A DNA stretch of 44,967 nt from an uncultured delta proteobacterium (GTDB lineage Bacteria > Myxococcota_A > Polyangia > Polyangiales > Polyangiaceae): positions 300,948 to 345,914 of the forward strand of contig CAVSWE010000003.1 in assembly GCA_963731595.1 (NCBI GenBank), given 5' to 3'. Each line of letters begins with the position of its first letter. Position 1 is the stretch's first letter. Position numbers and translations under genes: made by a program. This document shows, piece after piece, positions 1 to 40,820 of the stretch. The notes under the pieces were generated by a model that worked only from the letters and a program-made list of their open reading frames with translations, was not told where the DNA came from and did no database searches.

Positions 1-115
1 CAAGCGCTTCGACGATATGCGTCTGCGGCGTGATGGGATAGGCGCAGATTACCTGGGGCCGGCAAAGCGCGATCGCCTCTGCAACCGCGCGCGATCCTTC
101 GGTCTGTTTAAGCAT
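1..115 (-). CDS. 2-oxoacid (pyruvate/2-oxoglutarate):ferredoxin oxidoreductase alpha subunit, N-terminal 38 aa only (runs off window)
   Basis: Reverse translation from the ATG at 115..113 gives [38 protein letters not shown], the conserved N-terminus of OFOR alpha subunits (AYPITPQT motif). The start overlaps the stop of the upstream gamma subunit gene. Confidence 0.6.
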
Positions 116-686
116 CGATCGTGTCTTTCGCTTGGGCGGCGAGCTCGAATGCTTCCGTCGCCGCGGCGACGTTCTTCTCCGCTACCGCCGCAGGAAATTT
201 CTGGCGGATGGCCGCGACGACCGAAGCCAGCGCGATCCGCTCAGTAACCGCGGCAAAGCCGCCGAGCAGCGCCGCGTTCGGCACCGGGCGGCCCACGTGC
301 TTGAGCGCAAGCTCGGTGGCCGGGAGCGAGCACAGGCGATAGCGCCCGACGCCCCGCGCGAACGGGCCCAGCCCGAGCTCGTCGAAGCTGCGCGTCGAGT
401 TGATCAGGATATAGCCATGCGGCTGGAGGCCACTGAACACGTCGACCTGATGCAGCAACGTCGGGTCCTGCACGATCAATGCATCGGGCTCCAGGACCGG
501 CTCGCGTAAGCGAATTTCCTTGTCGTCGATGCGGCAGAACGCCATCACGGGCGCGCCCATGCGCTCCGAGCCGAAGCTGGGAAACGCCTGGGCATAACGC
601 CCTTCGAGAAACGCCGCGACGGACAGCATTTCGGCGCCCGATACCACGCCCTGACCACCGCGGCCGTGAATCCGGATCTGGAACAT
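108..686 (-). CDS. 2-oxoacid:ferredoxin oxidoreductase gamma subunit
   Basis: ORF 108..821(-). The conserved part starts at [54 protein letters not shown], the signature of POR/KOR gamma subunits. Start set at internal ATG 686. Confidence 0.75.
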
Positions 687-789
687 GTCTGGTCGCGCCT
701 CGGTGTTCGCCGCAAGCCCTTGCGGCCCATTCATTGGGGAAAATCCTCCTGCCGACCCGGGAATTGTCCCCGTATTGCCGAAACCTATC

Positions 790-803
790 TTGACGCAGGT
801 CAA
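790..803. promoter_or_regulatory. FNR/Crp-family binding site TTGAC-N4-GTCAA in the divergent intergenic region between the OFOR gamma gene and frdC
   Basis: Perfect palindrome ttgacgcaggtcaa at 790..803. It lies ~140 bp upstream of the frdC ATG (943) and ~100 bp upstream of the divergent OFOR gamma start (686). Confidence 0.4.
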
Positions 804-942
804 CACTCGCCGACGGACCACGCGCTAGCTTCACGGGGCCTCGCCCGGATGACTGCAGCGGCCCGTGGACGGGCCGTTTCAGCCGGGACCGCGAGCCCGG
901 AAACGAGCACGGCGTCGACCACGCCGGGAAAGGAAGCGCACG

Positions 943-1750
943 ATGGAGCATAGCGGCCCGCTCATCGCCGGCGTCGGGCTCACCGACCCTGCCCGGCGCA
1001 GCCATTGGCCGGCGAGGCTGGACCTGGCGCAGAGCGCCTCGGGTCTCCTGCTCGCGCTTTTCATGTGGGCGCATATGGCCTTCGTCTCGTCGATCCTGCT
1101 TGGCAAGGACGTCATGTGGATGGTCACGAAATTCTTTGAAGGCTATTTTCTCTTCGGCCGGTCCTATCCGGGGCTTGTCTCGACCGTGGTCGCGCTGGTC
1201 ATCGCGCTCGTGGTAACGCACGCCATTCTGGCGCTGCGCAAATTCCCGATTAACTACCGTCAGTTCAGCACCTTTCGCGGCCATATGCGGATGCTGCGGC
1301 ACGAGGACACAACGCTTTGGTTCTGGCAGGTTGTCACTGGCTTCGCCCTGTTCTTTCTCGCCTCGGTGCACCTCTACATCATGCTTACCCGGCCCGACCG
1401 TATCGGGCCGTTCGAATCCGCCGACCGGGTGTGGAGCGACCATTTCTGGCCGCTGTATATCGTGCTACTGCTGACCGTCGAGGTGCACGGCGGGGTCGGC
1501 CTGTACCGGCTTGGCCGTAAAATGGGGTTGGTTCGCAGGCGGCGATGCGAACGCGGTGCGGCGTCGGCTCAAGCTCGCCAAATGGGCGCTGACGGCCTTC
1601 TTTCTGGTCCTTGGCGTGGCGACTCTGGCCGCCTATATCAAGATCGGCATCGAGCACCGTGACCACTATGGCGAGCACTACGTTCCCGCGGCGCAGCAAG
1701 CGTCGTCACCCCAACCCGCCGCTGGGGGCGCGGCGGGGAGCCCTCGGTGA
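943..1750 (+). CDS. frdC: quinol:fumarate reductase dihaem cytochrome b membrane subunit (Wolinella type), +1 frameshift at ~1511-1516
   Basis: [11 protein letters not shown]...[14 protein letters not shown]...[54 protein letters not shown]...GLYRL aligns along its length with W. succinogenes FrdC. The C-terminus ..[16 protein letters not shown] continues in the +1 frame (ORF 1511..1750). An extra G in cttGGccg breaks the frame. The frdC stop overlaps the frdA GTG (GTGA). Confidence 0.8.
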
Positions 1751-3765
1751 ACGTGATCTACACCGACGTGCTGGTGATCGGCGGTGGCCTCGCCGGGTTG
1801 CGGATCGGCATCGGTGCCAAACGCCGCGGCCAAGACGTGATCATCCTGTCGCTCGTCCCGCCCAAGCGCTCGCACTCTGCGGCGGCGCAAGGCGGCATGC
1901 AGGCGAGCCTGGGCAACGTCGTCAAGGCGATGGGTGACAACGAGGACGTGCATTTCGAAGACACCGTGCGGGGCAGCGACTGGGGCGCCGATCAGCGCGT
2001 CGTGCGCATGTTCGTCGACACGGCGCCCAAGGCCGTGCGCGAGCTTGCCGCGTGGGGCGTGCCGTGGAGCCGCGTGCAGAAAGGTGACCGGAAGGTGATC
2101 ATCAACGGGCAGAAGGTCACGATCACGGAGCGCGACGAAGCGCATGGACTGGTGATGCAACGCGACTTCGGTGGTACCAAGAAATGGCGCGCCTGCTACG
2201 TCTCCGACGGCACGGGTCACGCCATGCTGTACGCGATGAGCGACCAGGCAATCGCCCACGCGATCAGCGTGCACGAGCGCATGGAGGCCCTGGCGCTGAT
2301 CCACGACGGGTCGCGCTGCTATGGTGCGGTAGTACGCAACCTCGTGACCGGGAAATTGGTCGCGTACGTCGCCAAGGCTACCGCCATTGCGAGCGGCGGC
2401 GCGGGACGCCTCTATCGCGCGACGACCAACGCGGTCATCTGCGAGGGCATCGGCACGGCGCTGGCGTTGGAGACCGGCGTGGCAATGGTAGCCAACATGG
2501 AGGCGATCCAGTTTCACCCGACGGCAATCTTTCCGGCATGCATTCTGGTCACCGAAGGCTGCCGTGGGGACGGTGGATTGCTGCGCGACGCTGCGGGCAA
2601 GCGCTTCATGCCCGACTACGAGCCGGAGAAGAAGGAACTCGCCTCGCGCGACGTCGTATCCCGGCGCATGGAAGAGCACATCCGCAGGGGCGCGGGCGTG
2701 AAGTCACGGTTCGGCGAGCATCTGTGGCTCGACATCACCCTGCTCGGGGCCAAGCACATCGACAGCAACCTGCGCGAAGTGAAGGAGATCTGCCACTATT
2801 TCCTCGGCATCGATCCGATCAAGGATTGGATACCGGTGCGACCGGCACAGCATTACACGATGGGCGGGATCCGGACCGACCACACCGGCGGTAGCCCGAC
2901 GCTCAAAGGACTCTACGCCGCCGGCGAAGCCGCGTGCTGGGACCTGCACGGCTTTAACCGCCTGGGTGGAAACTCGGTCGCGGAAACCGTCGTCGGCGGC
3001 ATGATCGTGGGCGAGTTCATCGCCGATTTCTGTGCTCGTCCCGAGAGCAACCTGCAGTTCTCCACCGGCCTGATCCGCGAATTCCTGGAGCACGAGCAGG
3101 CCAAGCTCGACGCGCTCGCCGGTAACCGGGGCGGGGAAGAAGCCAACGCATTGCGGGTCCGAATGCAGGAGATCATGACGACCAAGGTCGGGATCTTCCG
3201 CACCGGCGGGGAGCTTGCCGCCGCGGTCGAGGAGCTGCAGTCGCTGCTGCGGCGCAGTCAGAACATCGGCCTGCGCTGCACCGCAAGTGGCGCAAATCCG
3301 GAGCTCGTTTCCGCCTACCGGGTCCAGAAGATGCTGCGGCTGGCGCTGTGCGTCGCCTACGGCGCGCTGACTCGGACCGAGAGCCGGGGCGCGCATTTTC
3401 GCCATGACTATCCGCGGCGCGACGACGCCGAATGGCTGAACCGCACGCTAGCAACGTGGAAGAGCGCCGACGACATGCTGCCGACGCTGGCACGCGAATC
3501 GCTTGACGTGATGCAGATGGAGCTGCCGCCGGGGTGGCGCGGATATGGGGCGAAGGACTACGTCGAGCATCCCGACACGGCGCGTCGTACCGCGGAGGTG
3601 GAGGCGATCAGGACCAGGCTCGTCAGTGCCGGCCGCGGGGTCGTACAGGAGGCCCTGATGCCGTACGCTGAGCTCATGCCCGAGCGCTTCCGCGGACCCA
3701 ACGAGCGCATCGATGAGCCGCTGCCACCGTCTCCCGCAGGCCCGCAACGACCGAGCCCGACATGA
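1747..3765 (+). CDS. frdA: fumarate reductase flavoprotein subunit
   Basis: 672-aa ORF with GTG start. It has an N-terminal FAD Rossmann fold ([11 protein letters not shown]), the covalent-FAD His region ([10 protein letters not shown]), and the active-site motifs [11 protein letters not shown] and HYTMGGI typical of FrdA/SdhA. Confidence 0.92.
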
Positions 3766-3822
3766 CCGGAGCCACCGCCATGGCCATCCCCGCCGGGGCC
3801 GCCTGAACGACCGCGGCGCAAG

Positions 3823-4536
3823 GTGCGGATTAGCGTCCTGCGCTACAACCCGCAGGAGCGCGGCAGTGTTCCCCGCATGCAGGCCTACGAACTCGAAGAG
3901 GCCGAGGGAATGACGCTGTTCATCGCGCTCAACGAAATCCGCGAAAAGCAGGACGCATCCCTGCAATTTGACTTCGTCTGCCGCGCCGGGATATGCGGCA
4001 GCTGCGGGATGCTGATCAATGGGCGCCCAGGGCTCGCCTGCCGTACGCTGACAAAGAACCTGGACCCGGAGATCACGCTGGCGCCCCTGCCGGTCTTCGA
4101 ATTGATCGCCGACCTTTCGGTGAACACCGGCAAGTGGATGCGGGCGATGAGCGAACGGCTGCAGACCTGGGTGCACATGCGCCAGAAAGAGGTGGACACT
4201 TCCCGGCTCGAGGAGCGCATGGAGCCGGAGCTGGCGCAGAAAATTTACGAACTTGATCGCTGCATTGAATGCGGGTGCTGCGTCGCCGGTTGTGGCACCG
4301 CGCGCATGCGCGAAGACTTTGTCGGCGCGGTCGGCCTGAACAAGATCGCCCGTTTCCGGCTCGACCCGCGCGACACGCGCACCGACGCAGACTTCTACGA
4401 ACTGGTCGGTGACGACAGCGGTGTATTCGGTTGCATGTCCTTGCTCGCTTGCCACGATGTCTGCCCGAAGGAGTTGCCGCTCGCAACGCAAATCGCCTTC
4501 ATGCGTCGCAAGATGGTGAGCATCGGTTGGAAATAG
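3823..4536 (+). CDS. frdB: fumarate reductase iron-sulfur subunit
   Basis: 237 aa. It carries the 2Fe-2S motif CRAGICGSCGMLINGRPGLAC and the 4Fe/3Fe cluster motifs CIECGCCVAGC and CHDVCP. Confidence 0.9.
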   Translation: MRISVLRYNPQERGSVPRMQAYELEEAEGMTLFIALNEIREKQDASLQFDFVCRAGICGSCGMLINGRPGLACRTLTKNLDPEITLAPLPVFELIADLSVNTGKWMRAMSERLQTWVHMRQKEVDTSRLEERMEPELAQKIYELDRCIECGCCVAGCGTARMREDFVGAVGLNKIARFRLDPRDTRTDADFYELVGDDSGVFGCMSLLACHDVCPKELPLATQIAFMRRKMVSIGWK

Positions 4537-4568
4537 CAGCGTCTTTTTGCACCCTATGTGGAGGAGTC

Positions 4569-5575
4569 ATGAAGGTCGCAACGAAGTTTGCAACACTAAG
4601 TGTCGCACTGGCTAGTTTAGCGATTGCGTTCGGGGCACCCGCACAGCAGCCGATCATCATCAAGTTCAGCCACGTCGTTGCCGTCGACACGCCCAAGGGC
4701 AAGGGCGCGGAGAAATTCAAGCAGCTGGCCGAGGAGCGTACGAAGGGCCGGGTCAAGGTCGAGGTCTACCCGAACAGCACGCTGTACAAGGACGGCGAGG
4801 AAATCGACGCCCTGCAGCTGGGCTCGGTGCAGATGCTCGCCCCCTCGGTGGCCAAGTTCGGGCCGATGGGGGTGCGCGAATTCGAAGTCTTCGACCTGCC
4901 GTACATCTTTGACGACTTCGGCGAGCTGCACAAGGTCACCGAAGGCGCGGTTGGGAAACTGCTGTTCCAGAAACTCGATTCGAAGGGCATCGTCGGTCTT
5001 GCCTATTGGGACAACGGCTTCAAGGATTTCAGTGCCAACAAGCCGCTTAGGCTTCCCGGCGACGTCAGGGGTCTGAAGATGCGCATCCAGTCGTCGAAGG
5101 TGCTCGATGCCGAAATTCGTGCCCTCGGGGGGATTCCGCAGGTGATGGCCTTCTCCGAGGTGTATCAGGCGCTGCAGACCGGCGTGGTCGACGGCACCGA
5201 GAATCCACCGTCGAATTTCTATACCCAGAAGATGAACGAAGTGCAGAAGTATCTGACCCTGAGCGATCACGGCGTCATCGAATACGCGGTAATCGCGAAC
5301 AAGAAATTCTGGGATGGCTTGCCGGCGGATATCCGCACCATCCTCGAAGGCGCGATGAAGGATGCGACCAAATACGCCAACGACATCGCCAAGGAGGAGA
5401 ACGACAAGGCGCTCGCGGCGGTCAAGGCGACCGGGAAGACTGAAATCCTGACGCTCAGCCCCGATGCGAAGGCGGCCTGGAAAAAGGCGCTCTGCCGGTG
5501 CATCGAGAGATGGAAAGCCGGGTCGGCAAGGACATCATCCAGGAGGTCTACAAGGAAACCGGGTTCAAGCCCTGA
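4569..5575 (+). CDS. dctP: TRAP transporter substrate-binding protein DctP (C4-dicarboxylate), one -1 frameshift in an A5 run at ~5481
   Basis: MKVATKFATLSVALASLAIAFGAPAQQPIIIKFSHVVAVDTPKGKG... is a typical DctP with signal peptide. After ..AAWKK the conserved C-terminus (LPVHREMESRVGKDIIQEVYKETGFKP*) reads in the -1 frame and ends at TGA 5573..5575. The as-given ORF instead runs on to 5711. Confidence 0.8.
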
Positions 5576-5624
5576 CCGAGCGTTGCAGCGCCTGATGCGC
5601 GAGCCGGGTTCGACGCAAACCGAC

Positions 5625-5651
5625 GCCGCTGCGGCCCGCAGCGGCTTTTTT
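5625..5651 (+). terminator. rho-independent terminator (or attenuator) between dctP and dctQM
   Basis: gccgctgcgg-ccc-gcagcggc is a perfect 10-bp GC stem, followed by tttttt. It sits 50 nt after the reconstructed dctP stop. Confidence 0.5.
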
Positions 5652-5694
5652 GTGTGCAGCAGAACGGCGGTCGACCAACCGGGGACGCTTGCGC

Positions 5695-6306
5695 ATGCTG
5701 AAGCTCCTTGACCACCTCGAAGAGTGGCTCATCGCGCTGCTCATGGGCGGCGCGACGTTGATCATCTTCGTGGCCGTCGTTCACCGCTATGCCGCGGGCC
5801 TGCCCATCCCCGTGGTGCAGGACTGGCTGCTTGCGCTCAACCTGTCGTGGGCGCAGGAAGCATGCATCTACATGTTCGTATGGATGGCCAAGTTCGGTGC
5901 CGCTTACGGCGTGCGCACCGGCATCCACGTCGGCGTGGACGTGGTGATCAATCACCTGCCCGACGGCGTGCGCCGCAAGTTCATTCTTTTCGGACTGGGC
6001 GCCGGCGCGCTGTTCACCGGCGTGGTGGCCTCGTTCGGCGCCAGTTTCGTGTGGCAGCTCGCCCACACCGACCAGACCTCGCCCGACATGGAGCTGCCGA
6101 TGTGGCTGGTCTATCTGGCCATTCCCTGCGGCTCGGGGCTGATGTCCTTCCGCTTCCTCCAGGTGGCGTGGAACTTCTGGCGCACGGGCGAGCTGCCGCA
6201 TCACGACCCGACCGACGTGGCGGGCGTCGAAAAAATTGCCGACCAGGACGCCCACGTCGGCCTGGCGCAAGACAATCTTTTTCCCGCGCCGCCTGGCAAG
6301 CGCTGA
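5695..6306 (+). CDS. dctQ: TRAP transporter small permease DctQ
   Basis: MLKLLDHLEEWLIALLMGGATLIIFVAVVHRY... has four predicted TM helices, typical DctQ size and position. Confidence 0.8.
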   Translation: MLKLLDHLEEWLIALLMGGATLIIFVAVVHRYAAGLPIPVVQDWLLALNLSWAQEACIYMFVWMAKFGAAYGVRTGIHVGVDVVINHLPDGVRRKFILFGLGAGALFTGVVASFGASFVWQLAHTDQTSPDMELPMWLVYLAIPCGSGLMSFRFLQVAWNFWRTGELPHHDPTDVAGVEKIADQDAHVGLAQDNLFPAPPGKR

Positions 6307-6309
6307 GCC

Positions 6310-7605
6310 ATGACCTCCGCCATCATCTTCGGGCTGTTGATCGCGCTCATGCTCACCGGCATGCCCATCTCGATCGCGCTCGGGCTCACGGTCCTGACTT
6401 TCGTGTTCACCATGACCCAGGTGCCGATCGAATCGGTGGCCCTGAAGCTGTTCACCGGCATCGAGAAGTTCGAGATCATGGCCATCCCCTTCTTCATCCT
6501 CGCCGGCACTTTCCTCACCCATGGCGGGGTGGCGCGGCGGATGATCAATTTCGCCGCCTCCATGGTCGGCCATTGGCATGGAGGGCTGGCGCTCGCAGGC
6601 ATCATCGCCTGCGCGATGTTCGCGCTTGTATGCGGTTCGAGCGTCGCCACGGTGGTGGCCATCGGCTCCATCGTGCTGCCGGAGATGGTCAAGCGCGGCA
6701 TCCCCATGGACTTCGGCGCCGCCGTGATCACCGTCGCCGGTTCGCTCGGCATCCTGATGCTGCCGTCGATCCCCAAGGTCATCTACGCGATCGCCACCAA
6801 CACCTCGATCGGCGCGTTGTTTGTCGCCGGCCTGCTGCCGGGGATCCTGCTGACCACGATGCTCTGCCTGGTCACCTGGTATATCGCCAAGAAGCGCAAT
6901 TACCCGCGGCTGCCGCGCGAAAGCTGGGGCGCGCGCTTCAAGGCGTTCCGAGAGTCCGTCTGGGGCCTGATGCTCGTGGTCATCATCATCGGCGGCATCT
7001 ACTCGGGGATCTTCACCGCCACCGAGGCGGCCGCGATGGCCGCGGTGTACGCGTTCTTCGTGTCGGTGTTCGTGTACAAGGCCATGCCGCTCAAGGATTT
7101 GCGCAAGGTGCTGCTGACCTCGGCCAACATGAGCGCAATGCTGCTCTACATCATCACCAACGCGGCACTGTTCTCGTTCATCCTCACCAACGAGAACATT
7201 CCGCATGCCCTGGCGGACTGGATTATTGCCAAGGATCTGGGCTGGGTGGGGTTCCTGTTGCTGGCCAACGTGCTGTTGCTCCTGGCCGGCAATTTCATGG
7301 ACCCGTCCTCGGTCATTCTCATCATGGCGCCGATTCTCTACCCCGCGGCGATGACGCTCGGGATCAATCCGGTGCATCTCGGCATCCTGATCGACGTCAA
7401 CATGGAGGTCGGGCTCTGCCATCCCCCGGTGGGGCTCAATCTGTACGTGGCCTCGGGCATTTCGCGCCTCGGCATCACGCAGCTGACCAAGGCGCTGGTT
7501 CCCTGGCTCGTCACCATGCTGATCTTCCTGGTCATCGTCACCTATTGGCCGGCGCTGTCGACCTGGCTGCCGCAGAAGATGGGTATGATGGGGCCGTTGC
7601 CCTAG
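6310..7605 (+). CDS. dctM: TRAP transporter large permease DctM
   Basis: 431-aa polytopic membrane protein with DctM-family sequence throughout (MTSAIIFGLLIALMLTGMPISIALG...). It starts 4 nt after the dctQ stop. Confidence 0.9.
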   Translation: MTSAIIFGLLIALMLTGMPISIALGLTVLTFVFTMTQVPIESVALKLFTGIEKFEIMAIPFFILAGTFLTHGGVARRMINFAASMVGHWHGGLALAGIIACAMFALVCGSSVATVVAIGSIVLPEMVKRGIPMDFGAAVITVAGSLGILMLPSIPKVIYAIATNTSIGALFVAGLLPGILLTTMLCLVTWYIAKKRNYPRLPRESWGARFKAFRESVWGLMLVVIIIGGIYSGIFTATEAAAMAAVYAFFVSVFVYKAMPLKDLRKVLLTSANMSAMLLYIITNAALFSFILTNENIPHALADWIIAKDLGWVGFLLLANVLLLLAGNFMDPSSVILIMAPILYPAAMTLGINPVHLGILIDVNMEVGLCHPPVGLNLYVASGISRLGITQLTKALVPWLVTMLIFLVIVTYWPALSTWLPQKMGMMGPLP

Positions 7606-7647
7606 GTCCGGCGGGTCGAATCGACAAACGGCCGCTTTTCCGCGGCT

Positions 7648-7953
7648 ATGTTACTCCGACCCACTTCGCAGATAAACTTCAGTTCTTTTGGCCCAACCAG
7701 TATGCGGCTCGCAAAGTTCGTCAAGGTACGCGAGGAGAAATTTGGCGGCGTCCTCTTCGAGACGCGCTCGGAGAAGGTTTTTACGCTCAATCCAACGGCC
7801 ATGGCGGTCGTGCGCGAGATCGAAGCAGGCCATGACGAGCGCGAGATCGCCATGCGACTGAAGGCGCGCTTTAACGACAGTACCGACGTGATCGAGCGCG
7901 AAGTCGTCGCGTTCATCGCGGAGCTGCGGCAGAGAAGCCTTGTCGAGGGTTGA
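7648..7953 (+). CDS. PqqD/MftB-family peptide chaperone (RiPP recognition element protein)
   Basis: (M)RLAKFVKVREEKFGGVLFETRSEKVFTLNPTAMAVVREIEAGHDEREIAMRLKARFNDSTDVIEREVVAFIAELRQRSLVEG matches the PqqD-family pattern (FG..L...., LN.ta..vw, C-terminal fi..L). An alternative start is ATG 7702. Confidence 0.65.
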   Translation: MLLRPTSQINFSSFGPTSMRLAKFVKVREEKFGGVLFETRSEKVFTLNPTAMAVVREIEAGHDEREIAMRLKARFNDSTDVIEREVVAFIAELRQRSLVEG

Positions 7954-7957
7954 GCGC

Positions 7958-9112
7958 GTGACAACATTGGCAACGGATAACGGACCCGACTCCGCGATCC
8001 CAGCGACGACCTCGACCTACGCCTGCTCGGAGGACCTCGCCGCGCCACTCTACGTGGCCTGGCAGATCACCAACGAATGCAACCTCGCCTGCCTGCACTG
8101 TATCGAGGAGAGCGGGCCGGGCAAGGCGTTCGCAGATGAGCTCGACGCGGCGCAGATATTCTCGGTGCTCGACCAGTTGCTGGACCACCAAGTCCCCTAC
8201 ATGTCCTTCTCGGGCGGCGAGCCTATGCTGCATCCGCAGTTCTTCGAGATGGTGGAGCACGTCTGCGCGCGTGGCGCCCAGCTCAAGATCGAGACCAACG
8301 GTCATTATCTGTCCGCCGAAAACTGTGCGCGGATGAAGGAACTCGGCGTCAAGGCGGTCCAGGTGAGCCTCGACGGCGCGTCCGCCAAGACGTTCGAGCG
8401 TATGCGCGTGCGCGGGAACTTCGATCGCACGCTCGATGGCCTGCGCAACCTTCGCGCGGCAGGCGTGCCCGTGGAGATTAACTTCTCGCCCGCCTGCTTC
8501 AACGTCCATGAGATCGGCGCGGTCGTCGACCTCGCATACAAGCTGGGCGCATACAGCTTCTACACCGGGACGCACGATGTACACCGGCAACGCCGTCAAG
8601 GCTTGGCGCCACCTGGAAGTTTCGGAGCCGAGCAATACGAGGCGTTCTTCGCTGTTCTGCGGCAAAAAGCCGAGGAGTACCACGGCCGCATGCGCGTCTA
8701 CTTTCACGAGGCGGGGTTGCTCGAGGAGCTGCGTTATCGCCTGCAGCACCCGGCTGCGCTGCTGATCGTGCTCCCGAACGGCCTGGTCAAGCTCATCAAC
8801 GCCTTGCCCTTCGTGTGCGGCGATTTTCGCCGCCAGACGCTGCGGGAAATCTGGGCGAATTTCCGCCGCGCCTGGCACGACCCGCGCGTGGCACAGTTCG
8901 TCGACGAGCTTGGCACCGACCCGGGCGGACACGGACGCTGCACCAATGGGTCTATCTTTGACTGCGCTGCCCGTGCGATCCGGCCGTTCGGCGCGCACGG
9001 CGCTGCACCGGCTGCTCGCCGTTTGCCGCCTGGTGCGCTACCGGTTTTTCCTATATGCCGGGCTGCTGCCGTATCTGCTCGGCGCGGCCTGGGCCTACGC
9101 TCGCGCTGGTAG
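7958..9112 (+). CDS. radical SAM enzyme, MftC/PqqE-like (SPASM-family-like) maturase, paralog 1 of 3. The 3' end is uncertain and there is an internal compensating frameshift pair at ~8570/8623
   Basis: ..PLYVAWQITNECNLACLHCIEESGPGKAFADEL..FSGGEPMLHPQFFEMV..QLKIETNGHYL..VQVSLDGASAKTFERMRVRGNFDRTLDGLRNLRAAGVPVEINF aligns block by block with mycofactocin maturase MftC (CLTWELTYRCNLACVHCLSSSGKRDPGEL...GGGEPTVRPDF...VQISLDGATAEV...). The CxxxCxxC motif follows the W-x-I-T motif. Its tail overlaps the start of the prenyltransferase gene. Confidence 0.72.
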   Translation: MTTLATDNGPDSAIPATTSTYACSEDLAAPLYVAWQITNECNLACLHCIEESGPGKAFADELDAAQIFSVLDQLLDHQVPYMSFSGGEPMLHPQFFEMVEHVCARGAQLKIETNGHYLSAENCARMKELGVKAVQVSLDGASAKTFERMRVRGNFDRTLDGLRNLRAAGVPVEINFSPACFNVHEIGAVVDLAYKLGAYSFYTGTHDVHRQRRQGLAPPGSFGAEQYEAFFAVLRQKAEEYHGRMRVYFHEAGLLEELRYRLQHPAALLIVLPNGLVKLINALPFVCGDFRRQTLREIWANFRRAWHDPRVAQFVDELGTDPGGHGRCTNGSIFDCAARAIRPFGAHGAAPAARRLPPGALPVFPICRAAAVSARRGLGLRSRW

Positions 9113-9897
9113 CCTTCGACGCGCCGATTTTCTGGAGCGGCCTCGCGGGTGTAGTGCTCGCCGTAATCGGCGTCGAGGCATTCAACGAGTATTTCGATTC
9201 ACGCATGGGCACCGACCGCGTCTTCAACCCGGCCGAACTCCCGCCGATGTCTGACGCAGTGCTCTGGTTGGGCATTGCGGCCTTCGCCGGCGCGCTGGCG
9301 GTCGGCATCTACCTGACCGTGCGTGGCGGCTGGCCGATCCTGGCCTTCGCACTCCTGGGTGGAACGGCGGCGATCTTTTATGTGGCGCCCCCGATACGCT
9401 GGGCCTATCGTGGCCTGGGCGAACTGGTCATCGCCCTGTCCTACGGGCCCTGGATGGTACTGGGCAGCCTCTACCTGCAGAGCCAGGCGCTGTCGTGGGG
9501 GGCGCTCTTCGCGTCGCTCGTACCGGGATGCCTGATCATGGCGCTCGCGGTCGTCAACGCGATTCCCGATTACCACCAGGATCGCTTGGTCGGCAAGCGC
9601 AATCTCGTCGTGCGGCTCGGCCGCCGGCGCGCGGTTTGGCTGTATCTTGCCCTTGCGGCAGGCGGACTGCTGGTGGTGCCGGTCGGCGTAGCGAGCGGCA
9701 TCTCCCCGCCACCTGCCTGGCGGCCTTACTGGCGGTGCCGCTGCTCGTGGCCAGCGGCCGCTGCGCGCTGCGGCACTTATGAAACACCGCGCGCCTTTGT
9801 TCCCGCCGTGCGCAGCATCGTCGGCTGCTATCTGGTCGCCGTCGTGCTGTTCACCGCCGGCGTCCTGTGCAGTGGCGTAGCGTCCTTGCGCCCATGA
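8946..9897 (+). CDS. UbiA-family polyprenyltransferase, MenA-like (1,4-dihydroxy-2-naphthoate polyprenyltransferase-like). As given it carries ~3 frameshifts (~9095, ~9715, ~9780)
   Basis: Reconstructed MGLSLTAL..RLVRYRFFLYAGLLPYLLGAAWAYA / LALVAFDAPIFWSGLAGVVLAVIGVEAFNEYFDSRMGTDRV...NAIPDYHQDRLVGKRNLVVRLG has both UbiA Asp-rich motifs (N-x3-D-x5-D and D-x3-D). The NAIPDYHQDRLVGKRNLVVRLG segment matches E. coli MenA NNLRDINSDRENGKNTLVVRLG. The start overlaps the paralog-1 radical-SAM gene; the stop overlaps the paralog-2 start (ATGA at 9894..9897). Confidence 0.7.
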
Positions 9898-10861
9898 ACT
9901 GGATCGATCGCCTGCGCGCGCCGCTGTTCGTGTCCTGGCAGATCACGCGCGACTGCGACCTGTGCTGCCTGCATTGCTGCACCGAGTCGGCGCCGGGGAA
10001 GCGGTTGCCGGACGAACTCGACGCTGCCGAAGCGACGTGGCTGGCCGAGGAGATCGTCCGCAACGCAGTGCCCTACGTGATGCTTTGCGGCGGCGAGCCT
10101 TTGGTCGTGCCGCACTTTTTCGCCCTTGCCGAAGTCGCTGGGGCGGGCAGGCGTCCAGCTGAAGATCGAGACGAACGGGCAGCGCTTCGATGCCAAACTC
10201 GCCGCCCGGCTCGCCCGCCTGCCCGTCCGGTCGGTACAGATTAGCCTGGACGGCGACACACAGGAGGTCTACGAGCGCCAGCGGCCCGGGCGGCTTCGCT
10301 CGCCAAAGCCCATGCGGCCTGCCGCGCCGCTCGTGCGGCCGGGCTGCCGCTCGAAGTCACCTTTGCGCCGACCCGGCTCAACATTCACCAGGCCGGGCCG
10401 GTCATCGAGCGGGCGCGGGCGCTTGGTGCCTTTCGCTTCAATACCGGGCGGCTCATGCGCATCGGCACCGCCGCGCGGCTGTGGGAGAAGCTCGAGCCTT
10501 GCCGAGGAGCAATACCGGGAATTCCGCGCCTGTTGAACCGCATGGCCCGGCGCCTAGAGGGGCAACTGGAGATTTGCCATGCTCCGTTTGACCTCGCGGA
10601 AGGGCTGCGCGGCAGCCTCCAGAACGCCGCCGGCAACCCTGCTCGTGCTGCCCAACGGCTGGGTCAAGGTTGCCGCGGCACTGCCGCAGATCTGCGCTGA
10701 CTTGCGCCGCCATAGCCTTGACGGAGGCCTGGGAGGCCTACCGCAACGCGTGGCGGAGTGATACAGTGCTGGCGGAAGTACGGCGCGCGGTCGCCGATCC
10801 ATCGCGTCACGCGCGAGGCCAACAGTTGGCAGTTGTTGCCCGTCGCCCCGGTGTGACCTGA
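9894..10861 (+). CDS. radical SAM enzyme, MftC/PqqE-like, paralog 2 of 3. It is broken into at least 4 ORF pieces by about five 1-nt indels, from sequencing error or real pseudogenisation
   Basis: The pieces MNWIDRLRAPLFVSWQITRDCDLCCLHCCTESAPGKRLPDELDAAE..CGGEPLVVPHFFALAE / VQLKIETNGQRFD..VQISLDGDTQEVYERQRPG / ..AARAAGLPLEVTFAPTRLNIHQAGPVIERARALGAFRFNTGRLMRIGTAARLWEKLEP / LLVLPNGWVKVAAALPQICADLRRHSL / EAWEAYRNAWRSD.. are collinear with paralog 1 across four reading frames. Confidence 0.6.
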
Positions 10862-10872
10862 CGGAGGGAAAA

Positions 10873-11025
10873 TGAGCGAGTTGAACCTGACGATCGAAGC
10901 CGCCAAGACCGGCGACGAACGCAAGACCGATACGGTGCAGCCGGCGCAAAAGCCGCATGGGAAACGCCCAAGCTCGAGGACGTGTCCGAGCAGGTGATGG
11001 CCCAACCGTATATCCGCTTCACCTG
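10873..11025 (+). CDS. candidate RiPP precursor peptide (51 aa, reconstructed across one frameshift in an A4 run at ~10949-10952); PqqA-like C-terminal core
   Basis: A strong SD (ggaggg-aaa-ATG) precedes it. Frame 1 reads MSELNLTIEAAKTGDERKTDTVQPAQK. After a 1-nt indel in caaaag the frame continues as AAWETPKLEDVSEQVMAQPYIRFT* to the TGA at 11023. The W-x-x-P-x-L-x-D-V...E...Y pattern recalls PqqA (WKKPAFIDLRLGLEVTLY). It sits immediately upstream (20 nt) of paralog 3. Confidence 0.4.
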
Positions 11026-11045
11026 AGATACCCAGAACTTTCGCA

Positions 11046-11982
11046 ATGCCGGGGCGTTCGGTAGAAGAGTACCGAGCACCCCTTTTTCTTGCCTGGCAGC
11101 TGACCAACCGCTGCGCTGCGCGCTGCATCACCTGCTGCGAGGAATCCGGTCCCGATAAGGCATGGGGCGATGAGCTTTCCCGTGACGAGGCGATCGCGCT
11201 TGCACGGCGCATCGCGGCGTTCGGCATCGCCTACGTTGCCTTCGGCGGCGGCGAGCCGCTAGGTGTACCGCATTGCTGGGATCTGCTCGAGCTGCTCGCC
11301 GCGGCCGGCATCGCTCTTAAGATCGAGACCGACGGCAGTCACATCGACGCTTCCGCGGCCGATCGGCTCTCGGCGCTCGGCGTCGAGTGCATCCAAATTT
11401 CGGTCGACGGAGCGACAGCGGCGACGCATGAGCGCGTGCGTCCGGGATCGAGCTTCGCCGCGGCGGTCGCCGCCATCGAGCGACTGGTCGCGCGCGGTCG
11501 TGCACCGCAATTGGTGTTCGTTCCCACCCGCTTCAACTGCACGAGATCGTCGCCGCGTTCGATCTGGCGGCAACGCTCGGCTGCGGCGCATTCGTCACCG
11601 GCCCGCTGATGCGCATCGGCCGCGCCGCGGGCGCACTGGCAGCGCATCGCCTGCAGCAGACGAGGAGTGGCGCGCCGCGGTTACCGCGTTGAGAGAACGC
11701 ACCGCGTCGATGCGGCCCCGGAATGGCCCTTGTCGATCTATCCTTGGGACATTCGTTGCGGAGATGGAAACGCGGCTCGAGCGACCGCAGGCGATGCTGC
11801 TGGTCGTGCCCAACGGCAAGGTCAAGCTGCTCAATGCGCTCCCGTTCGCCGCCGCCGACCTGCGCCGCGATTCGCTCGAGGACGCGTGGCGGGCCTATCG
11901 CGACGCCTGGCATGCGCCGGAGGTGCGCGAATTCATCACCCGCTGCCGCAGCCAATCCAGCGCTGCTGATGCACGCCAATGA
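11046..11982 (+). CDS. radical SAM enzyme, MftC/PqqE-like, paralog 3 of 3 (at least 2-3 frameshifts as given)
   Basis: MPGRSVEEYRAPLFLAWQLTNRCAARCITCCEESGPDKAWGDEL..AFGGGEPLGVPHCWDLLELLAAAGIALKIETDGSHID..IQISVDGATAATHERVRPGSSFAAAVAAIERLVARGRAPQLVFVPTRFN, then in other frames ..AFVTGPLMRIGRAAGAL.. and ..ERPQAMLLVVPNGKVKLLNALPFAAADLRRDSLEDAWRAYRDAWHAPEVREFITRCRSQSSAADARQ*. This is collinear with paralogs 1 and 2. Confidence 0.6.
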
Positions 11983-12112
11983 GACATGGCCGATGGTTAG
12001 GAACGACGGTTGACCCCCGCGCCAGAAACCCCAATACTTAAGCGGCTGTGATTGAATACTTACCCGTCGTAGCGAAGCTTTTGAGGGCCCGGGAGCCCGC
12101 TGATCGGTTGCG

Positions 12113-12442
12113 ATGCATCGACTGACATTGGGACTACTCGCCGCCTGCACCGCTGGCGCAATCGCGGTTGCGGCCCAGCCAGCGCCGGACAGCTCCCGCG
12201 GCGAGCTCCTCTATTCCACCCATTGCATCGGTTGCCATAGCGCGCAGGTGCATTGGCGCGAAAAGAGGCTGGCGACAGACTGGGCAAGTCTCAGGATGCA
12301 AGTATTTCGATGGCAGATGAACACGGGCCTCGCCTGGAGCGACGAGGACATCGTCGCTGTCACCCGCTATCTGAACGATCTCTACTACCGTTTTCCGACG
12401 CCGGACAGGCCGGTGGCATTTCAGGGGTCGTCGGGTAACTGA
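12113..12442 (+). CDS. secreted mono-haem c-type cytochrome (109 aa)
   Basis: It has a signal peptide (MHRLTLGLLAACTAGAIAVAAQPAP) and a single CxxCH haem-binding motif (HCIGCHS). Same strand as the radical-SAM cassette, 130 nt downstream of it. Confidence 0.65.
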   Translation: MHRLTLGLLAACTAGAIAVAAQPAPDSSRGELLYSTHCIGCHSAQVHWREKRLATDWASLRMQVFRWQMNTGLAWSDEDIVAVTRYLNDLYYRFPTPDRPVAFQGSSGN

Positions 12443-12585
12443 TCCCGGGCTGCCGCGTCAAATCGATGTGAGTCGCTCGTTCTTTGCCGTCGACAAATGC
12501 TCTAGCTCGGGAGGCGCGCGCATACGACGGTCGAGTCCATCTCCCAGCGAGTGATCACTCGTGCCCCCAACGCGAGTGTACTGTT

Positions 12586-13095
12586 CTAGCTTGGCCGCCG
12601 CTGCAATAACGTGCCCAGGAGCAGAGCGAAGCCCAGGAAAATGACAAGCGACGCTTGCGCCAGAGTAAGTCCCAGGATCTTAAAGGACGTATCGGAACAG
12701 TCTCCCGTGGCATGCAGCAGTTGGGTCAGTACTTCGCTGACCGCCATGGTGTCCAGCATGTAGGCCAGGCCGGCACTGCAAGAGGCGACGCTTGGTGCCG
12801 GAAAAAGTTGCAGGTACGTCTGATAGCCGGCGACCCCGAGTCCTTCCAACGTCAGGATCGCAGCCATCCAAAGGAGAGCCCGCTGTACTCGACCTTGGGG
12901 CCGCGCCACGGCTGCGGCAAAGAAGACGGGTATCAGGCCAAGATACGTGAGCCGTTGGATGATGCACAAGGGGCACGGTTCGATCCCCAGTATGTGCTGG
13001 ACAAAAAAGCTTGCACCGACAAGACCGGTGCAGGTCACTCCAAGCAAGATCGAAACTTGGGCAGGAGAAGTCAGCACACGCGAAAGCCTATTCAC
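12586..13095 (-). CDS. dsbB: disulfide bond formation protein B (DsbB family)
   Basis: Four TM helices. A first periplasmic-loop CxxC (EPCPLCIIQR) and a second Cys pair (SCSAG ... GDCSD) fit the DsbB architecture. Confidence 0.6.
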   Translation of the reverse strand: MNRLSRVLTSPAQVSILLGVTCTGLVGASFFVQHILGIEPCPLCIIQRLTYLGLIPVFFAAAVARPQGRVQRALLWMAAILTLEGLGVAGYQTYLQLFPAPSVASCSAGLAYMLDTMAVSEVLTQLLHATGDCSDTSFKILGLTLAQASLVIFLGFALLLGTLLQRRPS

Positions 13096-13511
13096 GGAAA
13101 TCGGCCGGCAATGCAGCTCCCCGCGGGACCCAGTACGCTAGGGGAATTTTGCCACGTCCGAGCCTGATCTCAGAAGTTTCTCCTCCGCAAAGGGCTGCTT
13201 CACCGCCCCAGGCCCGACGCGCGGAGCTTGGCCGCAATGGCTGGTGAATTTCGGCTTCACGACCCGGTGATCGCCCGGAGGCGCATCGCGAAATGCGCCT
13301 GGTCTGCGCCAAAGTGGCGCGAACGGCGCCTGGTTGACAGTCGGGGAATCGCCTGGCGGTTGCATGTTAAATCAATAACTTGCGACGCTTACCCTCTTAG
13401 TTGCGCATGAATTAGCGTCGTTGGAGTTTCCTTGAGGTACATCAACAGCCCAGATACGGCTTGGCTATAGGCTTCGTATTGCGGTGCAACAAAATCACGT
13501 CAGGAGCGCCC

Positions 13512-14327
13512 ATGGAGTTTCAAGGAAAAGTTGCGGTAATTACCGGTGCGGCCAGCGGCATCGGACGGGCGGTGGCGTTTGAATTGGCGCGCCGCAACGT
13601 GCGCGCGATGGCGCTGGTGGACATAGGCGAGAACATCGATGGCGTCGCCGCAGAAGTCAATGCGAAGGCCGGCCGTCAGGTCGCCTACCCTTACCGGGGC
13701 GATACGACCGACGAGGCGTTTCGCGCTTCGGTTTTCGATTCCATCAGTAGCCAGTTCGACACCGTCACGATGTGCGTGCCGGCCGCCGGCATCACGCGCG
13801 ACGAACTTGCAGTCCGTATCGACAAGATCACTGGCAAGGCACGGATCTATCCGGTGGACCGGTTCAAGCAGGTCATCGATGTGAACCTCGTGGCGCCGGT
13901 CTACTGGGCGCTCGAGATGATCGGACGCATCGCCGAGAATCGCGCCGCCTGCGGCCTCAAGCGATGGCAGCCGTCGGAGGGCATGCAAGGGGCCATAGTG
14001 TTCATCGGCTCAGTTTCTTCGCAGGGCAATCGTGGCCAGATCTCCTACGCCAGCGCCAAGGCCGGCCTCGAGGGAGCGGCCGCGACGATTATGAAGGAGG
14101 CGGTTTTCTACGGCGTTCGCTGCGGGCTTATCCACCCGGGGTTCACCGACACACCTATGGTGCGCGCAATGGGTGATGACTACATCAGCAAGCACATATT
14201 ACCTTTCACCCAATTGAGCCGGTTGATTCGCCCCGAGGAAATTGCCGATGCGATCTGCTTCATGCTCGCCAACTCGGCGGTGAGCGGCGAATTGTGGGCG
14301 GACGCAGGCTGGCATGCACCCGCGTAG
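13512..14327 (+). CDS. SDR-family short-chain dehydrogenase/reductase
   Basis: MEFQGKVAVITGAASGIGRA carries the TGxxxGxG NAD(P)-binding motif, and the catalytic Y-x3-K sits in SYASAKAG. Confidence 0.8.
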   Translation: MEFQGKVAVITGAASGIGRAVAFELARRNVRAMALVDIGENIDGVAAEVNAKAGRQVAYPYRGDTTDEAFRASVFDSISSQFDTVTMCVPAAGITRDELAVRIDKITGKARIYPVDRFKQVIDVNLVAPVYWALEMIGRIAENRAACGLKRWQPSEGMQGAIVFIGSVSSQGNRGQISYASAKAGLEGAAATIMKEAVFYGVRCGLIHPGFTDTPMVRAMGDDYISKHILPFTQLSRLIRPEEIADAICFMLANSAVSGELWADAGWHAPA

Positions 14328-14904
14328 CCGCGGTGACCTGGCAGCTTCGAGCGAGGGTCCTACCGCTGCTCCGCCGACGCGGGATGAGGCCGTCGACACG
14401 GAGGGTGAATCCGAGGTGCCGGCGCGCGGCGCCCAGCGGCAATGGCCCGGAACGGATCCGAACCAGTTTCCTTGGACTAAGGCTCTCGCCGGCGATCCCA
14501 GTCTTGTCGCGCCGGTGATTGCCTCGCCGGAGGAGATCCTCCGTGCCCGGGAAATACGAGAGCAACTCAAGAAGACATACTTAGATCGCCCAAGCCAACC
14601 TTGCTCCCTATGGTGGGTTGATATTGACTAAGTAACCCGTAGCCGGGTCGCCAATTTTCGGGCCAATGTTAGACGAACCCGCCATCTTGTGCCGTGAACA
14701 GCAGATCCCATGGACTGTCGCCAGTGCCGATCCAATATGAAATCAATCCTTCTTCTCGACCTTACGCGAACTCAGCGAGAAAATGTAGCACTTGCAGTAT
14801 TGCAATAGGGTTTCGGGAGCTTGGGCTGTTGCACCGTGGACATTATGGCGACGCAAGGAGCTCCAGCGCGAGGGCTCGAGGCAACCGATGATCTGCGAAC
14901 GCTC

Positions 14905-16550
14905 TTATGGACGCGCGGCGTCGATGCGCTCGCGGACCGCCCGCCACGCATCCGGCTGGCGCGCCTGCTCGAGCGGCGCTTCGCTATCGTAGGCGACGAC
15001 GAACGCCTGCTCCTCCGGCGCGAGGGGCTCGCACGTACGTAGCTGATAATCGAGCACCGCCAAATCGGCGTCCGAAGCGTCGGATCCTGCCGCGGCACGC
15101 TGCGCTATGCGCTCCCGAAGGGTCGAGTGCGCGCCATGAAATCCACGATCACGAAGGCGATGCCGAGCTCGATCGCGAGATTGCGGAAGAGGTCTCGCTG
15201 CCAGCGGTTGAGGAAAGTCGCGTCGATAATTGCAACGAAGCCGGCACCGACCACCTCTCGCGCCAGCGCGCCAAGCTCCCGGTATGTCGCCTCCGTCGCG
15301 CCGGCCGCGTACAGGCCACGATCGATGCCCGTCGCACCGCGCTCGTGGGCGTCGAGCCCGTGCATGCGCTTGCGCTCGACGTCGCTGCGGATTCGCACCG
15401 CGCCGATCGTCTCCAGCAGCACTCTGCGACAGGGTGGTCTTGCCGCAGCCGGCGAGCCCGTGGGTGACGAGGAGCGCGGGCCGTGTCGGCTGCGCGTAGC
15501 TTCGCGCCAGAGTCACGTGCGCGCGGTATTCGGCAAGCAATGCGCGTCGCGCTGCGCCGGCTTCGAGCTGTGCCGCGCGCAGCCGCGCGATCTTGGCGCG
15601 CACCATCGCGCGGTACACGAGATAGAAGCGCAGCACGGTCAGGCCAGCGTAGTCCCCCGTCCGCTCCAGGTACGCGTTGAGGAAGCGACGGGCCAGATCG
15701 ACTCGTCCGCGATAGTGGAGATCCATGACCGTGAACGCGACCTCGTTCATCACATCAATCCAGCGCATCGCCTCGTTGAATTCGATGCAATCGAAAATGA
15801 CAAGCTCGTCGTCGATGCGCGCGATGTTGTTGAGATGCAGGTCGCCGTGGCACTCGCGGATGAAGCCTTCCTTGCGCCGCCGCAGGAATGCGCCTTGGCA
15901 CGCGGCATGCTCGCGGTCGGTCCAGACGCGGAGCTCTTCGAGCTCGTCGCGTTCCGCCGCCGTCGCCACGTGCGGTCGGAACTGCGCGAAATTTTGCCGC
16001 GCGACGCGCAGAATCTCCTCCGGCGAGCCGAATGTGCCGTCGCGAGGAACGACACCGCTCGAGTCGTGAAAGGCGGCGACCTTCGCCGCCAGCGCATCAA
16101 TGTCGGCGGGTGAGAGCTCGCCGCGCGCCAGGATGCGGCTGGCCAGCGCGTCCTGCGGGAACTCGCGCATCTTCACCGCGTACTCGAGTGCCGGACCGTC
16201 GCCGCCGAGGACCGGAGCGTCAATGCTGCCCGTTATCGGCACGACGTCGAGGTAGAGCGCGGGTGCAAGCCGGCGATTGAGGCGCAACTCCTCTGTGCAG
16301 AAGAATCGCCGCGCCGCGAGTGTCGTGAAATCGAGAAAGCCGAAGTCGACCGCTTTCTTGATCTTGTACGCGTAGTGCCCGGCCAGGAAAACGCAGGAGA
16401 TGTGCGTTTCCAGCCGCTCGACGCGCCGCAGTCCGGCCCGAAGACCGCGGGACGGGAGAGCGCCGCCAGCAGTCGAACCTGATCCGTCTCGGTTGCGACG
16501 AGGGTCGTGGCCCGCTCGGGCGGCATGCGGTGGAAGATGCGTGGTGGCAT
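14905..16550 (-). CDS. bifunctional aminoglycoside-phosphotransferase-like kinase / AAA-family ATP-binding protein (about 3 frameshifts as given)
   Basis: The N-terminal region ..VERLETHISCVFLAGHYAYKIKKAVDFGFLDFTTLAARRFFCTEELRLNRRLAPALYLDVVPI.. plus the APH catalytic motif HGDLHLNNI are followed by a P-loop (GLAGCGKTTLSQ). The ATPase domain continues in other frames (ORF 15105..15422: LLETIGAVRIRSD..) before returning to frame for the C-terminus. Confidence 0.6.
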
Positions 16551-16569
16551 CTGGCCGCCTGAAACTGAT

Positions 16570-17051
16570 TCAGCCCGTGAACTCATGCGCCCTGACCTGG
16601 CCGTGCTGGCGGCGAGCGACGTCTTTCAGCCGCGCGGTGAGGCTCGCGAAGCCGTCGCGCAGCGCGACATACACTTCCTCGTCGTGGTCGCAATTGACGA
16701 CGAGCTCGTGGCCCGGAAGATCCGTGAGGTCCGGATTGCCACCATGCGACGGCATCTGTCGGACACCCTTAAGCGCATTCTTTTCCGCACCCGCCCGGTG
16801 CTCCAACTTCAGCCGGTCAAGCAGCGGTGCCGCGTCCGGAAGGCGCACACGCAAAAGCTGGAACAGATACTGATCCTCCTTGGGATGGTGAAAGCACTCG
16901 CGGAATGCATCGATGTAATAGATCATCGCCCCAGCACGCCGAAATCCGACGTGGCTCCCCGGTCGCGGATCTGGTGCACCAGATAAAGCATGCCGTGCAA
17001 GACCGCCGCCAGCGAACGGTGTTCGTCCTGAATGGCGCGGTTCGCCTGCAT
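16570..17051 (-). CDS. hemerythrin-like (HHE cation-binding) domain protein, one frameshift at ~16930
   Basis: MQANRAIQDEHRSLAAVLHGMLYLVHQIRDRGATSDFGVLG then shifts frame to MIYYIDAFRECFHHPKEDQYLFQLLRVRLPDAAPLLDRLKLEHRAG.., with the H-x3-E / HH..KE motifs of hemerythrin-like domains. ATG 17051 lies 25 nt downstream of the hemN stop. Confidence 0.55.
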
Positions 17052-17075
17052 ATTCGTCCTTCTTTCCCGAATGCA

Positions 17076-30993: not shown

Positions 30994-31056
30994 CGTGCCT
31001 GGGACGAATTGCTGAGTGTGACAGGCCGAATCCAGAGCGCGATGTACACTGGTCGC

Positions 31057-40811: not shown

Positions 40812-40820
40812 TGGCTTTGC

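Follow-up and report, generated by a model that had tools for sequence, protein, structure and literature searches.

The reading-frame breaks that interrupt the radical-SAM gene rSAM-1 and its neighbours are very probably errors of single bases in the consensus of a long-read metagenome contig that was poorly polished, and not the marks of gene decay. The excursion of rSAM-1 into another frame is real in the sequence, but it is not a feature of the organism. Across the window, i.e. the whole stretch of 44,967 nucleotides analysed here, the indels are private, one nucleotide long, biased towards insertion, clustered and not tied to homopolymers, and the genes show purifying selection once their frames have been repaired. 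An artefactual origin had been put forward in the original prediction as well, and that part of it is borne out by our comparison. The genes and stretches on which the analysis rests are the following, in positions of the window.

943 to 1750, plus strand: frdC, 268 aa when intact; one extra G at 1508.
3780 to 4536, plus strand: frdB, 251 aa when intact; extra C at 3784, in codon 2.
4569 to 5575, plus strand: dctP, 335 aa when intact; missing T at 5492.
7702 to 7953, plus strand: PqqD-like gene, 83 aa; intact and identical to relatives.
7940 to 9112, plus strand: called ORF containing rSAM-1, a radical-SAM enzyme.
7958 to 8961, plus strand: true extent of rSAM-1; the intact orthologue has 333 aa.
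8565 to 8631, plus strand: out-of-frame patch in rSAM-1; extra C at 8565, extra G at 8627 and extra A at 8631.
8565 to 11954, no strand: indel-dense patch 1; 30 one-base differences from the relative contig_25596 in 3.4 kb, 27 of them private to the window.
8946 to 9880, plus strand: UbiA-family prenyltransferase, 310 aa when intact; 3 private frameshifts near 9113, 9701 and 9771.
9894 to 10856, plus strand: rSAM-2, 318 aa when intact; 7 private frameshift events between 10132 and 10817.
10872 to 11026, plus strand: 51-aa peptide ORF; one private deletion, a missing G at 10957.
11046 to 12013, plus strand: rSAM-3, 320 aa when intact; 7 private frameshifts between 11536 and 11954.
14905 to 16550, minus strand: kinase-like gene (APH/AAA_33), 548 aa when intact; 3 private frameshifts at 15127, 15422 and 16425.
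17066 to 19645, no strand: indel-dense patch 2 (hemN and downstream); 17 one-base indels.
17075 to 18500 (coordinates approximate), minus strand: hemN, 474 aa when intact; 8 private frameshift events.
31868 to 36320, no strand: clean control stretch (DUF3280, Sel1 and CPT genes); no indels, 100% or 99.955% identity to two Logan contigs.

The ORF called at 7940-9112 finds its best NCBIfam matches in AhbD, NirJ and MftC, all of them far under the cut-offs, and most of the profile alignments end at residue ~208, exactly at FYTG. At this point the frame 1 translation of the ORF continues as ...SFYTGTHDVHRQRRQGLAPPGSFGAEQYEAFF, whereas the +1 frame over the excursion reads GRTMYTGNAVKAWRHLEVSEP. 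It had been predicted that the conserved frame departs from the annotated one and then rejoins it, which we observed within ~65 nt when comparing the frame 1 and +1 translations, and that the +1-frame motif matches paralogues 2 and 3, which indeed carry TGRLMRIGTAARMW and TGPLMRIGRAAGAW, respectively. The match to the invariant motif extends over 17 residues although it lies in another frame, which is far beyond chance. In an alignment of eight homologues with 74-100% identity, FYTG-RTMYTGNAVKAWRHL shows little or no variation, and the called product of the window (P0121) departs from the family solely in the patch downstream of FYTG and in a C-terminal tail arising from read-through. Over positions 8565-8631 the family-invariant RTMYTGNAVKAWRHLE is swapped for out-of-frame residues, so that ~21 codons, those of the invariant motif RTMYTGNAVKAWRHLEVSDR, are wrongly translated. 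In the relatives, FYTGRTMYTGNAVKAWRHLEVSDRQYEAFF stands in a single frame and the protein ends in ...DPGRTRTLHQWVYL, followed by the stop, at 333 aa.

Of the three frameshift events of rSAM-1, the two at the excursion differ in position and in kind from what had been predicted. The first break had been placed in a G-run (~8568-8572); compared with three or four independent relatives it is an extra C at 8565 that turns C into CC. For the second, placed in the T-run gTTT (~8622-8625), no T is missing and two bases have been gained instead, either G at 8627 and A at 8631, as placed by BLAST, or GA at 8630-31. What had been described as a compensating +1/-1 pair is actually a +1 followed by a +2, and a further 300 nt on the frame is lost once more, where a missing T at 8925 abolishes the stop and the called product of 384 aa reads on to 9112. 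A frameshift-aware alignment of the gene gave the same series of events (fs+1 ~8567, fs+2 ~8629, fs-1 ~8928). The predicted return to 'GAEQYEAFF' holds in part: because the true sequence after the second break is ...RHLEVSDRQYEAFF, only QYEAFF is homologous and GAE is not. After repair, rSAM-1 has 324 of 332 residues identical to its counterpart in the Logan contig L003 and zero stops.

A search with the rSAM-1 protein of contig_25596 returned 1,703 homologues (E <= 1e-20), and nearly all of the best 120 of these are ~313-343 aa long. P0121, on record in NCBI and ENA from a contig of 345,914 bp, is letter for letter the frameshifted product of the window and falls in the same protein cluster as the contig_25596 rSAM-1, while four independent assemblies of the same population encode the intact 333-aa protein without the changes seen in the window. 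We also considered whether rSAM-1 might carry a real, compensated frameshift tolerated in a functional enzyme, or a programmed ribosomal frameshift, as the frame is recovered past a stretch of 21 codons, with the ORF of the window uninterrupted. We give this virtually no credence: the excursion replaces residues that do not vary in the family, none of 80 orthologous loci has a frameshift at the position of the excursion, and the gene loses its stop through another -1, at 8925, which nothing compensates. With an indel every ~110 nt in this patch, three insertions in a row that sum to 3 are unremarkable, and the apparent compensation at 8565-8631 would consist of three spurious bases that make up one codon by chance.

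The nearest relative, contig_25596 of ERZ25039546 (505 kb), was found through an exact look-up of the DctM of the window, and is 98.46% identical to it over positions 1-17615. The comparisons drew on two Flye-style contigs, L002 (contig_25596 of ERZ25039546) and L004 (contig_125703 of ERZ25039470), and on Logan contigs of ERR12035937 (L003, L086, L088), ERR11594406 (L089, L090, L092), ERR11571145 (L093) and SRR27943669, which belongs to an unrelated SRA project (L087); L085 denotes the contig_25596 sequence used for the hemN region and sodB. Frameshifts were counted with a purpose-written frameshift-aware protein-to-DNA aligner, tblastn HSPs being too messy where shifts adjoin.

A comparison with the closest reference genome had been proposed as a test, and in the relatives compared here the private indels of the window are lacking (L002, L003 and L004; L085, L086 and L087). 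Throughout the 4.8 kb of the cassette (window 7554-12360), all 27 of the window's indels are absent from L002, L003 and L004. The other sequences have few private indel columns of their own in this stretch, 3 in L002, 5 inside genes in L004 and none in the Logan contig L003, and since L090 and L092 are identical or near-identical to L003 over the parts covered, they are free of the cassette indels as well. Likewise, the 16 indel columns of the hemN region (16324-19461) are all private to the window: L085 and L086 agree against it at every one, and L087 does so at all three sites that it covers. In neither the cassette nor the hemN region did we find an indel common to the window and any relative. 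The window's own cassette allele, which is marked by 90 private SNPs, was seen intact in no independent contig; look-ups of orf109 and PqqD gave L090, L092 and L093, whose alleles are L003-like or L004-like and which are thus unfit as a same-strain control.

Over the 26.7 kb compared with contig_25596 there are 61 indel positions, all of them single bases save one adjacent pair; the sole longer indel, of 191 bp, is intergenic (23654-23658). When the window-private events were polarised, insertions outnumbered deletions by 30 to 13 (p = 0.014). The bases involved were mostly not part of a repeat: relative to contig_25596, 24 of 38 insertions added a base unlike both neighbours and 16 of 23 deletions removed an unrepeated base, together 40 of the 61 indels. 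No sequence motif, e.g. a methylation site, was apparent by eye in the listed contexts.

These figures bear on the claim, made in the original prediction, that the window carries the classic signature of homopolymer-length miscalls, of the type known from 454, Ion Torrent or older Nanopore chemistry. Some sites indeed fall within short runs, namely 16425 (C3), 17101 (C4), 17538 (C3) and 835 (G3 to G4), and the window shares with 454, Ion Torrent and Nanopore R9 miscalls that one-base indels give rise to frameshifts. Unlike in those data, the indels are not in runs, and the homopolymer explanation fails because only 4 of 61 (7%) fall in true runs of at least three, which make up 12% of all bases; the indels thus fall in homopolymers about as rarely as randomly chosen positions would. 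In rSAM-1 itself, the first breakpoint turns C into CC and the second consists of two insertions that extend no repeat. Miscalled homopolymer lengths are therefore an exceedingly unlikely source of the frameshifts. The homopolymers that had been named in frdC (~1512), dctP (5481) and the peptide ORF (10949) proved to be close guides and no more, since each indel lies within ~12 nt of the quoted run and none lies inside it (1508, 5492 and 10957, respectively). An IS5 transposase, listed among the frameshifted genes, was not found among the window ORFs that were scanned.

In bacteria, indels arise at about one tenth of the rate of substitutions, with a bias towards deletion and a preference for runs; real pseudogenes show this deletion bias together with a range of indel sizes, and real one-nucleotide indels favour homopolymer runs. 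Genuine and very recent pseudogenisation in this strain, which would make the rSAM cassette, hemN and the kinase gene decaying relics, has some observations on its side. The indels are concentrated in few genes (the three rSAM paralogues, UbiA, hemN and the kinase), the unique cassette allele of the window was found intact nowhere, and about half of the substitutions in hemN are non-synonymous. Against it stand the absence of any indel common to a relative and the type of the indels, all of one nucleotide, more often inserted than deleted and rarely in runs. Furthermore, frdB, frdC and dctP are also affected. That frdB and frdC should be broken beside a perfect frdA, and that an invariant motif of rSAM-1 should be scrambled, is biologically implausible for real lesions.

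The substitutions speak against decay in the same way. The cassette holds 82 substitutions unique to the window when those near indels are left out, of which 55 are at codon position 3 (p = 4.5e-10) and 54 are synonymous against 28 non-synonymous, which corresponds to a dN/dS of ~0.17 in the repaired frame. As the window-unique substitutions are mostly third-position and synonymous, the private branch has been under purifying selection in the intact frame. No stop codon has arisen by substitution: the repaired proteins have 95-98% identity to relatives and no stop codons, with 291/306 identical residues for UbiA, 308/317 for rSAM-2, 311/319 for rSAM-3 and 461/471 for hemN (UbiA has a further private extra T at 9868, in its last codons and past the aligned part). 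There are also too many indels for a decaying gene set. The ratio of indels to private substitutions is ~0.3 in the cassette and ~0.7 in the hemN region (16 indels, 23 private substitutions), and the 27 indels of the cassette stand against at most ~27 substitutions outside codon position 3, which is several-fold above any mutational spectrum known to us. In hemN itself, 7 substitutions are synonymous and 8 non-synonymous, with no clear third-position bias, a pattern that substitution noise at raw-read level would produce as well. Taken with the evidence from sister assemblies given below, we regard pseudogenisation as very unlikely. A more specific form of the idea, in which one strain of this betaproteobacterium, probably related to Casimicrobiaceae, very recently and selectively inactivated oxygen-sensitive radical-SAM genes, i.e. 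the three-rSAM/UbiA peptide cassette together with hemN, through unusual non-homopolymer single-base insertions, seems to us very unlikely indeed.

The indels are distributed very unevenly. The two patches at 8565-11954 and 17066-19645 hold 47 of the 61, which amounts to 7.9/kb compared with 0.67/kb elsewhere (p = 2e-19), and patch 1 is flanked by stretches of 1.5 kb before and 2.7 kb after it that have no indels. Between 20 and 23 kb the window and contig_25596 do not differ at all. It had been pointed out earlier from the sequence that frameshifts are denser in the cassette and hemN than in frdA, dctM or the Sel1 gene, and the comparison confirmed this for the indels. The clustering happens to fall on radical-SAM genes, and patch 1 also overlaps a private allele whose divergence is mostly synonymous. 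Neither GC content nor divergence, both considered as a cause, tracks the patches: the stretch at 13-14 kb is 3.3% diverged, as much as patch 1, and has no indels, whereas hemN is ~0.7% diverged and has 16. In patch 2, 8 of the 10 inserted bases are G on the plus strand.

Strong clustering is not what uniform sequencing error would predict, and we count it against an artefactual origin, together with its failure to track divergence, the unclear third-position bias in hemN and the lack of an intact copy of the window's cassette allele in any independent contig. The lengths of the patches (2.6-3.4 kb), their error level of ~1% and the strand-skewed insertions nevertheless suggest that they are stretches resting on one or very few reads. 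Under the reading that we prefer, consensus error, the window would be a stretch of a long-read metagenome contig, probably Nanopore-only, whose consensus was incompletely corrected. The two patches would have kept approximately the single-base indel noise of raw reads (~0.6-0.8%), with a level about ten-fold lower elsewhere; low local coverage, or a minor strain that contributed one or a few reads, would be our guess as to why. The organism's real rSAM-1, UbiA, rSAM-2, peptide, rSAM-3, hemN, kinase, frdB, frdC and dctP genes would then all be intact.

The availability of assemblies made with different approaches allowed us to compare frameshifts in the cassette between platforms. A scan of GTDB representatives yielded 80 loci with the cassette, from Casimicrobiaceae, Usitatibacter, Caldimonas, Steroidobacteraceae, Acidocella/Acidiphilium and Elusimicrobia. 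Of these loci, 29 come from Microflora Danica (MFD) MAGs, recognisable by 'MFD...bin' and contig_N names, which are Nanopore-only assemblies made by Flye (--meta --nano-hq) with one round of Medaka (PMC12313526). These 29 species representatives have 19 cassette frameshifts in 114 kb, of which 15 are internal and nearly all +1. In comparison, 49 other MAG contigs, mostly with MEGAHIT- or SPAdes-style names from which their short-read status was judged, have 8 in 181 kb, of which a single one is internal and the other 7 are artefacts of alignment ends. The excess of internal frameshifts in the MFD Nanopore MAGs over the other MAG contigs corresponds to an odds ratio of 24 (p = 6e-6). The nearest relatives of the window are Flye-named ENA contigs, and many of the related species representatives are MFD Nanopore MAGs.

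The sister assemblies have private frameshifts of their own, which differ from those of the window and are absent from Logan contigs of the same population. In contig_25596, UbiA and rSAM-2 carry frameshifts that are absent from the 99.75%-identical L003, with the effect that the two genes are called at 383 and 205 aa compared with 310 and 318 aa in L003. The same contig has a split sodB (L085 2244-2868), a gene that is intact in the window (23867-24547). In contig_125703, dctM, POR, UbiA, rSAM-2 and rSAM-3 are fragmented and DctQ is itself frameshifted, whereas in a Logan contig that contains its rSAM-1 protein all called genes, those of the cassette included, are full length. As the frameshifts of contig_25596 and contig_125703 differ and are contradicted by Logan contigs, every long-read contig appears with its own set of 'pseudogenes', and like frameshifts in other genes, contradicted there by read-derived contigs, argue against decay in the window too.

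The closest known counterpart is the residual indels of low-coverage Nanopore-only MAGs assembled with Flye and Medaka, such as MFD-LR (PMC12313526), or those in R10.4 benchmarks (PMC9262707), where private single-base indels also fragment conserved genes. The MFD Nanopore assemblies show mostly +1 frameshifts in this very cassette, and R10.4-type chemistry has likewise moved the main site of error away from homopolymers. It has been reported that R10.4 resolves homopolymers and that metagenome bins below ~40x coverage still need polishing (PMC9262707), which fits errors that are not tied to homopolymers. The window differs in degree: with 4.9 cassette frameshifts per kb it has ~30 times the mean of 0.17/kb of the MFD species representatives, and its density is 4-7 times higher than in the contigs of its two nearest relatives (1.2 in L004 and 0.73 in L002). 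It differs further in how sharply patchy its errors are, and its own platform is deduced from these comparisons. Tools such as Kastor (PMC12007338) and Homopolish (PMC8011154) were made to correct indels of this kind in Nanopore consensus sequences.

Genuine pseudogene-rich genomes are found in organisms undergoing reductive evolution, such as Mycobacterium leprae and recently host-restricted symbionts. The window resembles them in having many adjoining genes broken by frameshifts. It differs from them in that there is no relaxed selection, no stop codon derived from a substitution and no multi-base deletion within a gene, in that the bias is towards insertion and not deletion, and in that no lesion is common with relatives of 98.5% identity.

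Our findings are mainly a result of quality control: the gene calls of this contig are not to be taken for pseudogenes or used as family members, for which P0121, the 384-aa 'radical SAM protein' already present in the databases, is an example of a misleading call. The cassette, hemN, frdB, frdC and dctP are to be treated as intact. On a practical note, a search for homopolymers is an unreliable means of locating or diagnosing frameshifts in recent Nanopore assemblies, and the deciding test is the comparison with independent assemblies of the same population. What makes the locus of interest is the intact and widely conserved cassette, not its frameshifts.

Along 1-26733, the window and its close relative contig_25596 (ENA assembly ERZ25039546; loci L002 and L085) show a mosaic pattern of divergence. 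There is not a single mismatch at 20-23 kb, divergence is ~1.5% at 1-3 kb and ~2.5-4% in the radical-SAM (rSAM) cassette, and it is 3.3% at 13-14 kb, where an SDR gene is intact and carries 10 amino acid changes relative to contig_25596. This mosaic suggests either that co-occurring strains recombine or that the contig switches between strains. The one-base indels are largely restricted to two sharp-edged, kilobase-scale patches (8565-11954 and 17066-19645), and in the second patch the inserted bases are strongly skewed towards G on the plus strand (8/10). Our guess is that only one read underlies such a stretch, or that a minor strain has low local coverage there.

The Fe/Mn superoxide dismutase gene sodB presents the opposite of the cassette pattern: in contig_25596 (L085 2244-2868) its N- and C-terminal parts lie in separate ORFs, but it is whole in the window (23867-24547, one ORF of 226 aa). 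Downstream of sodB, an intergenic segment of 191 bp in contig_25596 (L085 3082-3272) is missing from the window at 23654-23658, which is the sole multi-base indel between the two sequences. Apparent frameshifts were also seen in dctQ in all three long-read contigs, at differing sites, namely in the window (5600-6306), in contig_25596 (L002 7500-8500) and in L004, a Flye-style contig (7727-8176). On the minus strand, an LCM methyltransferase-like ORF (30409-31944) matches only positions 76-186 of the model and overlaps the start of a plus-strand ChaN haem-binding ORF; it may be a further frameshifted gene or a mis-extended ORF.

The right-hand region, window 39864-44458, is probably mobile-element debris, and some of its genes may be truly degraded.

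Features of the right-hand region
39864-40811, sulfatase ORF, Pfam match limited to the model's C-terminal third
41121-41390, short stretches matching the L004 integrase gene
41741-42264, minus strand, two small adjacent ORFs, a toxin-antitoxin-like pair as judged by eye alone
42397-43176, HTH_38 (IS30-like) ORF
42976-43527, zeta-toxin/AAA ORF
43829-44458, IS110 DEDD transposase fragment

The IS5 transposase named in the original prediction was not located among the window ORFs scanned, and no tRNA genes were found within the window.

The cassette itself spans 7702-12867 of the window and has an intact counterpart in L003 (1-4794), a Logan contig from run ERR12035937.

Genes of the cassette, in order
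1, PqqD-like, 83 aa
2, radical SAM (rSAM-1), 333 aa
3, UbiA prenyltransferase, 310 aa
4, radical SAM (rSAM-2), 318 aa
5, peptide, 51 aa, MSELNLTIEAAKTDNERKTDTVQPAQKLQWETPRLEDVSEQVMAQPYIRFT
6, radical SAM (rSAM-3), 320 aa
7, small CxxCH protein, 109 aa
8, DsbB

Scanning GTDB representatives, we found the cassette in 80 species-level genomes (L005-L084), with hosts among the Casimicrobiaceae, Usitatibacter, Steroidobacteraceae, Acidocella/Acidiphilium and Elusimicrobia, and in most of them the five larger genes are intact. Genes for the peptide, the CxxCH protein and DsbB were observed in the closest relatives only. Two of the rSAM ORFs were scanned against NCBIfam, and no model reached the cut-off for rSAM-1 or for the start of rSAM-3; a SPASM domain was not reported by Pfam in any of the three cassette rSAMs. 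A full-text literature search for the combination of PqqD, UbiA, radical SAM and a precursor peptide returned no paper. The cassette looks like an uncharacterised pathway with a predicted peptide-derived product, which is possibly prenylated.
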